Of a DNA stretch of 64,000 nucleotides, positions 1,248 to 22,598 are shown one piece after another. How positions within the stretch are numbered: the stretch's first letter is position 1; each line of letters starts with the position of its first letter. Origin of the DNA: an uncultured Eubacterium sp. (lineage in GTDB: Bacteria; Bacillota; Clostridia; Lachnospirales; Lachnospiraceae); NCBI GenBank assembly GCA_910577295.1, contig CAJTLS010000015.1, positions 823 to 64,822 on the forward strand, written 5' to 3'. Made by a program: the position numbers and the translations under genes. A model generated the notes under the pieces. The model ran no database searches. It was not told the origin of the DNA and worked only from the letters and a program-made list of their open reading frames with translations.

Positions 1248-1727
1248 ATGAACGGAAACCACCCGAAAAGGAGACGGGACAAATACAATCCTTACCATAT
1301 ATATGAACTGGAAGGGCATTATTATATTTCCTTTCAGGACGGGCAAGGTGTTTTGCAAGAATTTGAGATTACTCAAACGCTGTATGAGGCATTTGATGAA
1401 TTTGAATTAAGTGACATATCGTATCTACACAAATGGGACAAGTACATAGAGCACTCAGAGATATGGGAAACCACGTTAAATGAAAGGGCATTTTTACAAT
1501 CGGAAAGTGTAGAGGAAATCGTGCTGAAGAATATTTTAACAGAGGAATTACATAAAGCGATTCAGACGTTATCCCCAGTTCAAAGACGCAGGCTTATTTC
1601 ATATTTCTATGAGGGCATGACTTATGAGCAGATTGCAGAAAAGGAGGGATGTACCAAAATGCCAGTAAAGCGTTCGATTGACGCTGCTATTGGCAGATTG
1701 AAAAAAGAATTAAAAAAATTAAAATAG
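1248..1727 (+). CDS. Sigma-70 family (region 4 HTH) sigma-factor-like protein of a mobile element
   Basis: C-terminal LSPVQRRRLISYFYEGMTYEQIAEKEGCTKMPVKRSIDAAIGRLKK is a sigma-70 region-4 HTH. GGAGGA SD lies 7 nt upstream of the ATG at 1248. Confidence 0.75.
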   Translation: MNGNHPKRRRDKYNPYHIYELEGHYYISFQDGQGVLQEFEITQTLYEAFDEFELSDISYLHKWDKYIEHSEIWETTLNERAFLQSESVEEIVLKNILTEELHKAIQTLSPVQRRRLISYFYEGMTYEQIAEKEGCTKMPVKRSIDAAIGRLKKELKKLK

Positions 1728-1752
1728 TACGGCTACTTTTTTAAGATTTTGT

Positions 1753-1800
1753 GGGAAACAAGTGAGAGGGAGTTTATTCCCCCTCATCTGTTTCCTTTTT
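1753..1800 (+). terminator. Rho-independent terminator after the sigma-like gene
   Basis: GGGAAACAAGTGAGAGGG / CCCCCTCATCTGTTTCC stem followed by TTTTT. Confidence 0.6.
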
Positions 1801-1849
1801 ACATGGAAACAAATTGACCTTTGACAATTTCATAGACCATTCATCAGGC

Positions 1850-2330
1850 ACATTCCTGTTGTTATCGTGATGAGGTAAGCCACGTTAGCAGGTACGCCAT
1901 GAGCCGAAACAGACAAACGCAGCGAAATCCCACTTATACCAGAAAATGATTTGCGGTCTGCCTGCCTGTTTCGGGGAGCGGGAACTACCGGGTTATAACT
2001 GCCAGCTTGCTGCTGGCAGGGCGATAACAGACAGCAGGCATAATGATACTCCTGTCTAGTCATAAAGTCGAGCGTACAATGCGGACTCGATTCTGAAGAA
2101 CACGAAGTGTTCTTTGAAGAGTACATGGTACTCTTTTGAATGTTTCGCATTTATTGGCGTCGCAACAAATGAGGGCAGCTTCGGGTGATCCCCGGAGGGG
2201 TGCGATTCCCGTGGAGCTGGTCAGCAACCAGCCGTCTGATGACTTCCCAGTACAGATTGTACCAGCGTTTGAATAGACGCTGCCGCCGGGGTGTCGGGGA
2301 CAAATAGGCGCTACATACCTGAAAAACAGC
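1850..2330. ncRNA. Candidate large structured RNA, or a hairpin-rich ssDNA origin/oriT; family not recognised
   Basis: No credible ORF on either strand. Several perfect 6-9 bp stems are present (1904-1912/1966-1974, 1999-2019, 2096-2114, 2117-2135, 2216-2232). The segment is visibly more G+C-rich than its flanks. Confidence 0.3.
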
Positions 2331-2334
2331 ATTT

Positions 2335-2343
2335 TGCTATAAA
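2335..2343 (+). promoter_or_regulatory. Extended -10 promoter candidate for mazF
   Basis: TGcTATAAA lies about 50 nt upstream of the mazF ATG, and an AGGAAAGGAG SD follows. Confidence 0.35.
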
Positions 2344-2394
2344 ACAGGTTCATAAAAACAAAAGATTTGCTTTTAGAGGAAAGGAGTGTTTTTT

Positions 2395-2760
2395 ATGGGA
2401 AAAAGACATATACGGCGAGGGGATATTTTTCATGCAGACTTAAATCCCGTTGTAGGTTCAGAGCAGGGTGGTGTCCGACCTGTGCTGATTATTCAGAATG
2501 ATACTGGTAATTATTACAGTCCTACGGTGATTGTGGCAGCTATGTCTGGCAAGATAGAAAGTAAGGCAGACTTGCCAACACATTATAAAGTAGGAACATA
2601 TGCTGGCTTGAAAGAGGAATCTTTGGTTTTGCTGGAACAGATTCGCACGATTGATAAGCGTCGTCTGAATGATTATGTTGGACGATTGGAACAAAAAGAT
2701 ATGGAACAGGTTGACCGCTGTCTTGCAGTAAGCCTAAGTCTTGACTTAAAACATGTGTGA
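2395..2760 (+). CDS. mazF: PemK/MazF family endoribonuclease toxin
   Basis: RGDIFHADLNPVVGSEQGGVRPVLIIQND and TIDKRRL are hallmark PemK/MazF motifs. Size is about 121 aa. Confidence 0.85.
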   Translation: MGKRHIRRGDIFHADLNPVVGSEQGGVRPVLIIQNDTGNYYSPTVIVAAMSGKIESKADLPTHYKVGTYAGLKEESLVLLEQIRTIDKRRLNDYVGRLEQKDMEQVDRCLAVSLSLDLKHV

Positions 2761-2775
2761 AAGGGGTTGAATGAG

Positions 2776-2946
2776 ATGAAGTGTTCAGATATTCCTGTAT
2801 TGACAGAAGAGATCAATGGATGCCTTGTCACTTTGTCATTTTTGCCGGAACCAGCGGATGGTGTTGTAGAAAAAGTGAAATCCATTCTGTCAAATGCTTA
2901 TGATGAACGGGTGCAGCATGATTTGATGAAACTTGCCAGCCTGTAA
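2776..2946 (+). CDS. Small acidic TnpW-like transposon-encoded peptide (56 aa)
   Basis: Translated by hand as MKCSDIPVLTEEINGCLVTLSFLPEPADGVVEKVKSILSNAYDERVQHDLMKLASL. The pattern resembles TnpW peptides (recalled from memory). It lies 15 nt after the mazF stop and upstream of the recombinase. Confidence 0.5.
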   Translation: MKCSDIPVLTEEINGCLVTLSFLPEPADGVVEKVKSILSNAYDERVQHDLMKLASL

Positions 2947-3028
2947 TGTAATTAAAATGGCAAGTCTGGCGGGTATCACTATAAGTATCCTGACATAGTA
3001 CCATAGTGTAAATTCAGGATTCGCACAT

Positions 3029-3057
3029 TTGAGAATGATTGTGTTTCTTCCTATAAT
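3029..3057 (+). promoter_or_regulatory. Sigma-A type promoter upstream of the recombinase
   Basis: TTGAGA (3029-3034), a 17-bp spacer, then TATAAT (3052-3057). Confidence 0.5.
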
Positions 3058-3064
3058 AAAGATG

Positions 3065-3084
3065 ATTACTGGCTAGCCAGTAAT
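3065..3084. promoter_or_regulatory. Perfect 20-bp palindrome (candidate operator or 5' RNA hairpin)
   Basis: ATTACTGGCTAGCCAGTAAT is its own reverse complement. It starts about 8 nt after the TATAAT box. Confidence 0.45.
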
Positions 3085-3144
3085 GCACCTTGACAATTTT
3101 ATAGTGTATCCCGTAGAAATATAAGATTACGGGAGGAATAGCAA

Positions 3145-4758
3145 GTGAAAAGAGTTTACACATTATACAGGGTTTCTACAAAGAAACAAGTAAATAGCAG
3201 TGAGGATCATGCAAATGACATACCTATGCAGAGGGGAGCCTGCCATGATTTCATCAGGAATATGCAGGACTGGAAGATTATAAAAGAGTATGAGGAAAAA
3301 GGCGTATCCGGATTTAAGGTATCGGCAAAGAACCGGGATGCTATCCTTGATTTACAGGAGGCAGCACTAAATAAAGAATTTGACGTGTTGCTTGTATTTA
3401 TGTTTGACCGGATCGGGCGTATTGATGATGAAACCCCTTTTATTGTGGAATGGTTTGTTAAGACAGCAGGCGTAGAGGTCTGGAGTGTCAAAGAGGGGGA
3501 ACAGCGTTTTGAAACCCATGTTGACAAATTGACCAACTACATCCGTTTTTGGCAGGCTTCCGGTGAGAGTGAGAAAACATCTATTCGTATTAAGACCAGA
3601 ATGCAGCAGTTGAGGCTGGATGGTCTTTATACAGGTGGACCACTCCCGTATGGATACCGGACAGTGCCAAGCGGAATAAAAAACCGAAAAGGGCAGGAAC
3701 TGAAGAAATTTGAGATTGACATGGAGCAGTTTGTGGTGTATCGGAAGGTGGTTGAAAAAACAATCCATAGCGGTATTGGAAGTTATGTGATTGCACATGA
3801 ATTAAATGATCAGGGTTACAAAACAGCCAATGGTGGCAAATTTACCTGTATGGCAGTTACGAGGATGCTTTCAGCACCGTTGCCGAGAGGATATACAAAA
3901 GAGGGGGAAACCTCCGAGGCTTTGCAGAGGTTGAAAATTATCAATGAGGAAGAAGCAGAGCGCATTGATGAAATTCTAAAGCAAAGAGCAAATGTTGACG
4001 AGGAAAAACGCAGGATTGCCACAAAGACAAAAGGCGAAGCATTGTTGTCGGGAAATATATTCTGCGCTCATTGTGGCGGGAGGATTACGACCACTCATCA
4101 CAAAGACCATTATTTTCGTAAAGATGGTAGCGAATATTTGAAAGATGAACTGAAATACCGTTGTTATCATAAGGCTAACAAGCTGTGTGAGTGTGACGGA
4201 CAAACTAATTATATCGCTGCCAAAGTGGATGAAGCGGTCTGTCAGATTATGCGTCAGTTATTTGCTAATATGGCAGGTGCGCCGGAAAAAGAAAAGTATA
4301 AGGAAATCTTAAAAAGACAGCAGGCGGCACATAATGCGGGCAGGCGTAAAATCAGTCTGGCATTAGACAAAAATAGGAAACAGTTGGAGGTATTGCAGGA
4401 GGAAATCGGGAAAACGCTGTTGGGAGAAAGCCTTTATACGCCGGAAGACTTGAAAGAGGCAATTAACACGATCAAGACGAGGATTACTGAAGGCGAAGAA
4501 CAGTTGCAGAAACTGGATCATGATATGCTTCAGGAAAAAGAAATGACAGAAGCAGTCCTGCCAGCCTATAAACGGTTCAAGAGTTGGGCAGAGGAATTCG
4601 ACACCGCAAGTAAAGAGCAGAAGAAAATGATAGCTTGCCAGTTATTTGAACGTATCGAATTAGGGAAAGGCTATAAACTTACTTTGCAGATGAATATTAC
4701 TTACAAACAGTTCTGTTCTGAGTATGTTACGGTAAAAGAAATTCAGGGTATTGCCTGA
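3145..4758 (+). CDS. Large serine recombinase (resolvase/invertase N-terminal domain, recombinase domain, zinc ribbon, coiled coil)
   Basis: N-terminal YRVSTKKQ carries the catalytic Ser motif. Also present are DVLLVFMFDRIGR, the CAHCGG...C..C zinc ribbon and a long coiled-coil tail. GTG start with an SD. Confidence 0.9.
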   Translation: MKRVYTLYRVSTKKQVNSSEDHANDIPMQRGACHDFIRNMQDWKIIKEYEEKGVSGFKVSAKNRDAILDLQEAALNKEFDVLLVFMFDRIGRIDDETPFIVEWFVKTAGVEVWSVKEGEQRFETHVDKLTNYIRFWQASGESEKTSIRIKTRMQQLRLDGLYTGGPLPYGYRTVPSGIKNRKGQELKKFEIDMEQFVVYRKVVEKTIHSGIGSYVIAHELNDQGYKTANGGKFTCMAVTRMLSAPLPRGYTKEGETSEALQRLKIINEEEAERIDEILKQRANVDEEKRRIATKTKGEALLSGNIFCAHCGGRITTTHHKDHYFRKDGSEYLKDELKYRCYHKANKLCECDGQTNYIAAKVDEAVCQIMRQLFANMAGAPEKEKYKEILKRQQAAHNAGRRKISLALDKNRKQLEVLQEEIGKTLLGESLYTPEDLKEAINTIKTRITEGEEQLQKLDHDMLQEKEMTEAVLPAYKRFKSWAEEFDTASKEQKKMIACQLFERIELGKGYKLTLQMNITYKQFCSEYVTVKEIQGIA

Positions 4759-4920: not shown

Positions 4921-5007
4921 TCCCCATCTTTCGGTGTGTATTCACACCAATGGTAGAGCCCACGGCTGTTAACCGTGTTGTTGTAGGTTCGAGTCCTACT
5001 CGGGGAG
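4921..5007 (+). pseudogene. tRNA-Asn(GTT)-derived sequence lacking a canonical D arm and 5' acceptor strand (probable att junction)
   Basis: Anticodon arm CACGG-CTGTTAA-CCGTG (anticodon at 4968-4970), T arm GTAGG-TTCGAGT-CCTAC and acceptor 3' strand TCGGGGA are intact. The upstream part does not fold as a D arm. Confidence 0.55.
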
Positions 5008-18381: not shown

Positions 18382-18455
18382 GGACCTTTAGCTCAGTTGG
18401 TTAGAGCATCCGGCTCATAACCGGACGGTCCGGGGTTCGAGTCCCCGAGGGTCCA
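18382..18455 (+). tRNA. tRNA with CAT anticodon (Met or lysidine-modified Ile2)
   Basis: Hand-folded cloverleaf: acceptor GGACCTT/AGGGTCC, anticodon loop CTCATAA, T loop TTCGAGT. Confidence 0.9.
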
Positions 18456-18459
18456 TTTT

Positions 18460-18533
18460 GGCCTAGTGGCTCAGTTGGTTAGAGCGCCGCCCTGTCACGG
18501 CGGAGGTCGTGGGTTCGAGTCCCATCTGGGTCG
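18460..18533 (+). tRNA. tRNA-Asp (GTC)
   Basis: Anticodon arm CCGCC-CTGTCAC-GGCGG and T arm GTGGG-TTCGAGT-CCCAT. Confidence 0.9.
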
Positions 18534-18568
18534 TTCAGGAGGAAAGCTATTCCTCTTGTATGAAATAC

Positions 18569-18654
18569 GCTGGTGTGGCGGAACTGGCAGACGCCCAGGA
18601 CTTAAAATCCTGTGGGTAGTGACACCCGTACCGGTTCGATTCCGGTTACCAGCA
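18569..18654 (+). tRNA. tRNA-Leu (TAA), class II with a long variable arm
   Basis: Anticodon arm CAGGA-CTTAAAA-TCCTG, a long variable arm and T loop TTCGATT. Length 86 nt. Confidence 0.9.
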
Positions 18655-22044: not shown

Positions 22045-22372
22045 CGTTTTTGCACAGTCTGTTGTGCGTTATAAAGATAATCGGTCTGAACGATAAAAAA
22101 ACTCCCGCTCCACAACCGATGCGGTTGTAGAGACGAAAGTATACTTTCGCGGTACCACTCTACTTCGTGTCATCAGACACGCTCTCGCAGGCACTGACAT
22201 GCCTTTCCCAAATAACGGTGGGGAACCGATGTGAACTACTGGGAAACACGCGGTTTCCGTTGGAACACATAGCTCAGAGGTGAGTTCGCGATATCTCTTC
22301 TGCTGCCTCGCACCAACCGACAACTCTCTGTGAGAAGATGAACCGTTACTATTCCTCGTCACTGCTTTTACT
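22045..22372 (-). promoter_or_regulatory. T-box riboswitch leader, Leu (CUC) specifier
   Basis: The minus strand reads AGAGUGGUACCGCG (T-box sequence, + coordinates 22148-22161), GAA-CUC-A in the specifier loop (CUC at 22282-22284), an AGAGA box, and a terminator stem plus U-run before leuA. Confidence 0.8.
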
Positions 22373-22524: not shown

Positions 22525-22598
22525 GTACGTGTAGCTCAGCTGGATAGAGCACTTGGCTACGGACCAAGGTGTCGGGGGTTCGAATCCTCTCACGTACG
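22525..22598 (+). tRNA. tRNA-Arg (ACG)
   Basis: Acceptor GTACGTG/CACGTAC, anticodon arm CTTGG-CTACGGA-CCAAG, T loop TTCGAAT. Confidence 0.9.

Follow-up and report, generated by a model that had tools for sequence, protein, structure and literature searches.

A conserved structured RNA between a sigma-like gene and mazF in a clostridial mobile element, probably of the canT antiterminator family with the pemK motif as its core

The DNA studied here is a stretch of 64,000 nt (the window) from an uncultured Eubacterium sp. of the Lachnospiraceae (GenBank assembly GCA_910577295.1, contig CAJTLS010000015.1, positions 823 to 64,822), and it contains a mobile element with a gene for a sigma-like protein, a mazF toxin gene and a large serine recombinase gene. 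The gap between the sigma-like gene and mazF had been described in a first-pass annotation as a candidate for a large structured RNA or a single-stranded DNA origin. Our analysis confirmed that this segment is a real, conserved structured RNA on the plus strand. The first half of the earlier proposal is thus borne out by conservation, covariation and strand-specific pairing, while the second half, an origin of transfer (oriT) or single-strand origin (sso), is disfavoured. We consider it probable that positions 1819-2310 form an RNA of about 450-490 nt belonging to the family of canT, the antiterminator RNA of Tn916, with the pemK motif as its core, the antiterminator role being assigned by homology. 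The two parts are already known, pemK RNA since 2017 and canT since 2024, and the member described here sits in a serine-recombinase element with mazF. That the pemK motif is the core of canT appears to be unreported in the searchable literature (the original 2017 description may be broader than the Rfam model), as do the actual length of the RNA (about 350-490 nt) and its covariation-supported architecture with a pseudoknot.

The Rfam pemK RNA (RF02913) was identified by cmscan (Rfam 15) at 2040-2214 on the plus strand; it scores 53.6 bits, where the gathering score is 34.8. This match to a described family, which the first-pass annotation had missed, covers the full model, positions 1-61, and the loop of stem P1 carries an insertion of about 110 nt. 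When 1600-3200 was searched with permissive filters at E <= 10, pemK was the only significant family, and ROOL, GOLLD, HEARO and raiA, which had been put forward as candidates, gave no match even at this threshold. The score above the gathering value and the same-strand position upstream of pemK/mazF both agree with membership of the pemK family. Of 20 diverse loci related to the window, 19 also scored above the gathering threshold of the model, and these loci are therefore genuine family members. The pemK motif comes from a screen that yielded 224 candidates (Weinberg et al. 2017, PMC5737381), the main text of which does not mention pemK, and no function has been assigned to the motif in the searchable literature. 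In Rfam the family is typed 'Cis-reg' and modelled with 61 consensus positions, whereas the conserved, covarying RNA found here spans about 350-490 nt; it also occurs where no pemK gene is present (13 of 54 loci).

The function of the related RNA in Tn916 has been defined by experiment. canT, a 452-nt antiterminator RNA, is encoded between xis and orf8, the latter following the sigma-like orf7 (Wirachman & Grossman, PLoS Genet 2024, PMC11658703). According to that study, canT is cis-acting, orientation-specific and processive, requires no other Tn916 gene, acts in a foreign host on heterologous terminators, including three in series, and must be transcribed in the sense direction from an upstream promoter. 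The opposite-strand orf5 over canT was dispensable, and oriT916 and sso916 were mapped as features separate from canT. Neither the conservation nor the structure of canT was analysed in PMC11658703, in which Rfam and pemK are unmentioned, and no other paper in the searchable literature pairs canT with Tn916.

As a reference for Tn916 we used the pCF10 copy (locus L303), in which the coordinates of the canT paper are counted from the orf8 stop at position 2040. The Rfam pemK model matched L303 2323-2423 on the plus strand (55.0 bits, E = 6.4e-9). Profiles of the 5' and 3' domains described below, searched with nhmmer, matched L303 2161-2335 over the full profile length (E = 1.3e-9) and L303 2322-2430 (E = 3.6e-21), respectively. 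The active fragment and the inactivating mutations of canT map onto conserved parts of the RNA (Table 1), and the counterpart of TTGAAAAC, the exact start of the active fragment, is contained in the conserved 5' block of the window RNA. By eye, Tn916 keeps helix H1 (CGAUAAGAA with UUCUUAUCG) and has H3 changed in a compensatory way, CUAAC with GUUAG. Taken together, the profile and Rfam matches and the mapping of the mutations indicate that the window RNA is homologous to an RNA whose function has been established by experiment. Both RNAs are about 450 nt in size, consist of a 5' domain and a core with a pemK match and the AUA changed in the S3 mutant, carry a spurious opposite-strand open reading frame (ORF), and lie after a sigma-like regulatory gene and before recombination genes, pointing to the end of their element. 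They differ in the large P1-loop insertion, which is found in the window RNA, in the downstream genes, which are xis and int in Tn916 but mazF, a 56-aa ORF and the serine recombinase gene in the window, and in orf8, which separates the sigma-like gene from canT in Tn916 and has no homologue in the window.

To describe the extent of conservation, about 240 loci from species genomes, metagenomes and IMG/VR were gathered through relatives of MazF, and 54 further loci were gathered independently of MazF by the DNA pattern of the RNA core alone. The core was found 170-450 nt 5' of mazF in about 80 of the MazF loci. In 35 non-redundant loci whose MazF is 50-62% identical to that of the window, conservation corresponds to window 1819-2310. 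This block of about 490 nt starts with CYTTGAMAA-N4-ATA directly after the terminator of the upstream gene and ends with a hairpin bearing the loop GGGGUGUCGRGGACAAAU. Where enough upstream sequence was available, the 5' domain accompanied the core and 3' domain in 82 of 84 MazF-anchored loci and in 46 of 47 loci anchored by the core pattern. A DNA similarity search with the whole 667-bp gap gave one short plasmid match and zero phage matches. A conserved upstream ORF following ACAAAU was considered and rejected, as by eye its ATG occurs only in some subtypes and is missing from the window and several others.

The 5' block, whose columns are invariant in the alignment of the 5' domain and apparently unpaired, could be a single-stranded 5' end region of the RNA or else resemble a promoter. 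In the whole 64-kb window there are exactly two copies of its motif CYTTGAMAA-N4-ATA, at 1819-1834 and 3088-3103, both on the plus strand, with a chance expectation of 0.10. The second copy lies upstream of the recombinase gene and was unseen in most other subtypes. The two copies may represent a shared promoter or operator for the sigma-like protein of the element.

Alignments were made with MAFFT L-INS-i, and structures were predicted with RNAalifold. For the 5' domain, window 1816-2052 was aligned with 27 loci (alignment A2), and 23 pairs were predicted. Of the alignment cells at these pairs, 95.1% were paired, and compensatory changes were observed in 18 of the 23 pairs. The covariation score of 0.588 was reached by 0 of 500 shuffles (shuffled mean 0.216), and the best slid register gave 0.125. 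The 3' domain (alignment A3, 25 pairs) behaved in the same way, with 97.0% of cells paired, compensatory changes in 13 of the 25 pairs and a covariation score of 0.418 against a shuffled mean of 0.222, a value again reached by 0 of 500 shuffles, and the best slid register gave 0.158. The covariation among homologous elements that the first-pass annotation had named as a check is therefore present in both domains.

The perfect short stems that had first drawn attention to the segment are all found at the coordinates given for them: the long-range stem CCGAAACAG with CTGTTTCGG, the hairpins CTGCCAGC-TTGCT-GCTGGCAG and GCTGGT-CAGCA-ACCAGC, and the adjacent hairpins AAGAACAC-GAA-GTGTTCTT and AAGAGTAC-ATG-GTACTCTT. 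The first three are conserved, covarying helices. The long-range stem belongs to the subtype-variable part of the 5' domain; by eye, six loci (L043, L162, L070, L168, L109 and L221) have other sequences at this site that are again complementary, and the stem is missing from shorter subtypes. The last two lie within the variable P1-loop insertion. This insertion varies in length and sequence among relatives, and one close relative, L090, has other hairpins there.

Within the core, P1 is defined by the Rfam model, and its pairing is kept through base changes in L012 and Tn916, as judged by eye. An alternative pairing predicted by RNAalifold, UCC 2050-2052 with GGA 2298-2300, is doubtful, showing almost no covariation and being incompatible with the P1 of Rfam. 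The 3' pseudoknot module follows hairpin P4. Its stem S keeps one constant register in 27 of 27 loci with a matched loop, and its sequences differ between loci yet stay complementary: CGCC/GGCG, AGCATTTT/AAAATGCT, TATGTGC/GCACATA, GTATCG/CGATAC and CCGTGA/TCACGG. The pseudoknot pairs between the loop and the upstream strand were 92-96% paired, with mostly one-sided variation, and support for the pairing of loop 2288-2297 with 2236-2248 is moderate.

Folding of the single sequence was less informative. The plus strand folded with -163.2 kcal/mol (z = -2.2), and 3 of 100 shuffles folded as well, whereas the minus strand had a better z of -4.9. Given the modest value for the plus strand and the better one for the minus strand, thermodynamics alone cannot decide whether the structure is real or which strand forms it; the choice of strand by folding energy was set aside, and counts of G-U and A-C pairs were used instead. 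Across both alignments there were 171 G-U pairs and 14 A-C pairs, and the functional strand is therefore the plus strand, the same as that of the flanking genes. It is thus the comparative evidence of conservation and covariation, not single-sequence folding, that places the structure beyond chance. The features of the RNA and its surroundings are collected in Table 1.

Table 1 Features of the probable canT-type RNA, of its flanks and of the corresponding sites in Tn916. Coordinates are those of the window unless L303 is given.
Feature	Position	Strand	Remarks
Whole probable canT-type RNA element (5' domain, pemK core, 3' pseudoknot module)	1819-2310	+	Conserved block
5' block CYTTGAMAA-N4-ATA ... 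AC	1819-1851	+	Columns invariant in alignment A2; apparently unpaired
5' domain	1856-2037	+	Closed by helix H1
H1, closing helix	1856-1863 / 2030-2037	+	8/8 pairs compensatory
H2	1879-1881 / 2020-2022	+	RNAalifold, A2
H3	1891-1894 / 1986-1989	+	4/4 pairs compensatory
H4	1895-1897 / 1978-1980	+	RNAalifold, A2
Long-range stem, subtype-variable part of 5' domain	1904-1912 / 1966-1974	+	
H6 hairpin (CTGCCAGC hairpin)	1999-2019	+	5/5 consensus pairs (2001-2005/2013-2017) compensatory
pemK core single-stranded segment AUAAUGAUACU	2040-2050	+	Near-invariant
AUA homologous to the canT(S3) site	2040-2042	+	S3 mutation abolishes Tn916 antitermination (PMC11658703)
P1	2052-2055 / 2175-2178	+	Rfam model
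Variable P1-loop insertion with hairpins 2096-2114 and 2117-2135	2062-2175	+	cmscan insertion
P2	2179-2185 / 2191-2197	+	Covaries
P3	2198-2200 / 2208-2210	+	Covaries
P4 hairpin (GCTGGT), just 3' of the Rfam model	2216-2232	+	5/6 pairs compensatory, 98.2% of cells paired
3' pseudoknot module	2236-2310	+	
Pseudoknot pairing	2236-2248 / 2288-2297	+	3' strand within 19-nt loop GGGGUGUCGGGGACAAAU-A, 2288-2306
Variable hairpins inside 3' module	2249-2283	+	
Stem S, closes 19-nt loop	2284-2287 (CGCC) / 2307-2310 (GGCG)	+	
UACAU	2312-2316	+	Between RNA and mazF ribosome-binding site
Sigma-70 region-4 protein gene	1248-1727	+	Pfam Sigma70_r4_2, Sigma70_r4
Terminator-like hairpin of sigma-like gene	~1763-1800		
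mazF/pemK gene	2395-2760	+	Pfam PemK_toxin, E = 4.6e-34
56-aa ORF	2776-2946	+	3' of mazF
Large serine recombinase gene	3145-4758	+	Pfam
Active 452-bp canT fragment	+126 to +577 after orf8 stop; L303 2166-2617		Starts at conserved TTGAAAAC
Inactivating S3 substitution, ATA to TGC	+283; L303 2323-2325		First three bases of pemK consensus AUAAUGAUACU
Inactivating 162-nt deletion	+229 to +390; L303 2269-2430		Whole core removed

From the homology with canT, we infer that the window copy would act in antitermination. In such a course of events, the RNA would be made as the leader of a rightward transcript covering mazF, the small ORF and the serine recombinase gene on its way to the right end of the element, and the folded RNA would act in cis on its own polymerase, rendering it resistant to intrinsic terminators (processive antitermination). 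After excision and circularisation, transcription could continue over the joint and, past insulating terminators, enter the genes at the opposite end of the element. The put RNA of phage HK022 and the EAR RNA of the B. subtilis eps operon are much smaller than the window RNA. Together with conAn2 of pLS20, they resemble it as proposed cis-acting nascent RNAs that make the polymerase terminator-resistant over long operons (PMC11658703), and this likeness is an analogy of mechanism, not membership.

Several observations weigh against assigning the window RNA to the canT family and an antiterminator role. A terminator-like hairpin stands directly 5' of the RNA, and no canonical sigma-70 promoter was found in 1800-1860; at the conserved TTGACAA, where such a promoter had been considered, no acceptable -10 element was seen at 16-18 nt. 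A strong intrinsic terminator directly 3' of the RNA in some subtypes would fit a conditional attenuator as well, and an insulating terminator would be expected at the left end of the element, which lies outside the window. Tn916 has no counterpart of the 3' pseudoknot module, which could add or change a function. Finally, the window sigma-like protein showed no similarity to Tn916 Orf7 by BLASTP (E = 36), and the 'orf7-like' synteny therefore rests on domain type and position only.

It is also conceivable, though unlikely, that the RNA is a conditional cis-regulatory leader, riboswitch-like or a protein-binding attenuator, which would respond to a signal by switching mazF and the recombinase gene on or off locally, with no processive modification of the polymerase. 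Such a leader would suit the 'Cis-reg' typing of pemK in Rfam, the complex pseudoknotted architecture with its many conserved unpaired bases, the terminator-like hairpin 3' of the RNA in several subtypes, and the sequences near the ribosome-binding site of subtype B, which by eye look capable of alternative pairing. canT, however, acts on heterologous terminators, on three in series, in a foreign host and with no other gene of the element, which argues for processive antitermination and not for a dedicated switch. Moreover, subtypes share no conserved sequence in the interval from the RNA to the following gene, and in the window this interval lacks an intrinsic terminator. The extra 3' module may still act as an attenuator.

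The position of the RNA in front of a toxin gene raises another explanation, that of an RNA antitoxin or decoy, similar to type III toxin-antitoxin systems, for a downstream MazF that lacks MazE. Most loci have no MazE-like ORF in the interval from the RNA to mazF, and, as with the ToxI RNAs of type III systems, a non-coding RNA stands 5' of an endoribonuclease toxin gene with a terminator sometimes between them, an order resembling toxIN. A UACAU site, conserved in the leader of many subtypes, would also suit this explanation. On the other side, 13 of the 54 independently found RNA loci lack mazF, as does Tn916 with its canT, and this undercuts the argument that the RNA replaces MazE and is hence an antitoxin. 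Tandem repeats, the hallmark of type III antitoxins, were not detected in 1728-2394 by Tandem Repeats Finder, the sole array found by it being A-rich and located at 1703-1724, and the toxin is an EndoA-type MazF, not ToxN. About one third of the RNA-less MazF loci with enough upstream sequence also have no obvious MazE, and the absence of MazE is therefore not diagnostic. We regard an antitoxin role as very unlikely.

The UACAU pentamer is the cleavage motif of EndoA-type MazF toxins, and the window MazF matches B. subtilis EndoA (PDB 4MDX) with E = 5.6e-36. A single TACAT was found in the tail from the RNA to mazF in 21 of 33 non-redundant loci, and two in one more, these loci belonging to related subtypes and not being independent; across the 33 structured bodies it occurred only 8 times. 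The UACAU of the tail was often shown in a hairpin loop, and MazF might cleave its own leader. For many MazF genes in RNA-less loci of Clostridia, Oscillospiraceae among them, no MazE ORF could be recognised upstream (L102, L055, L051, L033 and about 45 others), and in several of these loci alr directly abuts mazF, which differs from the alr-mazE-mazF order of Bacillus.

That the hairpins act in single-stranded DNA, as an oriT or single-strand origin, is highly improbable. The region is hairpin-dense and belongs to a mobile element, and covariation alone cannot separate an RNA from single-stranded DNA of the same strand, but its orientation is always that of the downstream genes, in the position of a leader, and G-U pairs are very abundant. 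The Tn916 homologue, in addition, needs sense transcription and is separate from oriT916 and sso916 (PMC11658703).

Least credible of all is a decayed protein gene or a real small minus-strand protein, since the overlapping minus-strand ORFs at 1830-2150 and 2060-2353 (106 and 97 aa), although present as annotated, had no match in Pfam, their frames are not conserved, and the analogous orf5 of Tn916 is dispensable (PMC11658703). The stop-free length of these frames varied from 51 to 131 aa across homologues, and tblastn gave short and fragmentary matches with no full-length alignment. An intact protein gene at this position in homologues had been considered; no gene was called in the gap on any related contig shown. 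Other elements of the initial description hold as well: no conserved ORF exists in the roughly 590 bp between the sigma-like gene and mazF, the G+C content of 1800-2300 (0.47-0.54) exceeds that of both flanks (0.36-0.41), and the segment is flanked by the sigma-like gene with its terminator-like hairpin upstream and by mazF downstream.

The genomic context of the RNA was then compared among the loci. In most of them, a protein of 140-200 aa with a C-terminal helix-turn-helix of sigma-70 region 4 is encoded 5' of the RNA; when the upstream proteins of four further subtypes were searched against Pfam, region 4 scored at or above the cut-off in three and below it in one. Downstream of the RNA, the order is an optional mazF, a small variable ORF and a large serine recombinase gene, which in some loci is replaced by a tyrosine integrase gene accompanied by one for Xis. 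The small ORFs are of the SHOCT_2, DUF6870 or Tn916-Xis-like type or are unassigned. Among the 54 pattern-found loci, mazF was located 228-723 nt 3' of the RNA in 41 and was absent from 13. At least 11 of these 13 have the RNA followed by a small ORF and serine recombinase gene(s), or directly by a recombinase gene. Since mazF is optional, the constant partners of the RNA are the sigma-like gene and the recombinase end, and not the toxin.

The position of the element end was indicated by sibling copies. Five copies (L002-L006) are identical to the window up to 4770 and divergent from 4771, so that the right end lies at about 4771, with the stop codon of the recombinase gene 13 nt before it. 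The operon with the RNA thus points out of this end, and the siblings, differing from the window beyond 4770, sit at different insertion sites. For one further copy (L001), the similarity to the window breaks off at 839 on the left side and at 5003 on the right side, and this copy has an IS200-like Y1_Tnp gene upstream that is not in the sibling copies. The module of RNA and recombinase gene looks like the end of an integrative conjugative or mobilisable element at which regulation and recombination functions are encoded. Many contigs with both (IMG/VR, L170-L302) are catalogued as viral, and some IMG/VR viral entries with this RNA may be misclassified.

The homology with canT has several consequences. 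RF02913, an orphan family, would gain an experiment-backed function in processive antitermination, and canT gains a covariation-supported secondary structure, domain boundaries and a set of single-stranded segments that are invariant. The S3 mutant can now be understood: the unpaired segment that it disrupts is the one with the highest conservation and adjoins the closing helix of the 5' domain. Antitermination of this kind would extend beyond Tn916 to the RNA in serine-recombinase and tyrosine-integrase elements of gut Clostridia, and spurious minus-strand ORFs can be removed from the annotation of elements carrying this RNA family. A broader view, which we put forward as a doubtful though possible extension, is that pemK and canT make up one widespread class of polymerase-modifying antiterminator RNAs of about 350-500 nt at the recombinase end of Bacillota integrative elements, the clostridial forms having an extra 3' pseudoknot module. 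In elements bearing mazF, the antiterminated transcript would then deliver an EndoA-type toxin without MazE, with UACAU as a point of self-cleavage or autoregulation. If this were true, excision and transfer would be coupled to a growth-arrest toxin, and a protein antitoxin would play no part.

Some smaller features of the loci were also recorded. Conservation of the 56-aa ORF 3' of mazF is limited to L010 and L090, the nearest relatives (55-61% identity); it belongs to no Pfam family, and other subtypes have SHOCT_2, DUF6870 or Xis-like proteins in its stead. In one RNA subtype (loci L229, L232, L233, L237, L238 and L278), the RNA is separated from mazF or the small ORF by a Cys-rich ORF of 60-73 aa (C-x2-C ... 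C-x-x-H-x-C), and one 71-aa version of it had no match in Pfam. In the window, a 17-bp hairpin, CCTCCAATCTGAAATTT...AAATTTCAGATTGGAGG, is located at 1199-1239 directly 5' of the ATG (1248) of the sigma-like gene, overlapping the TTG start at 1233 of the ORF list and the likely ribosome-binding site of this gene, and it could be a regulatory structure. Outside the element, in host DNA, four tRNA genes and a T-box leader are present on the minus strand at 18382-18654, 22126-22371 and 22525-22598.

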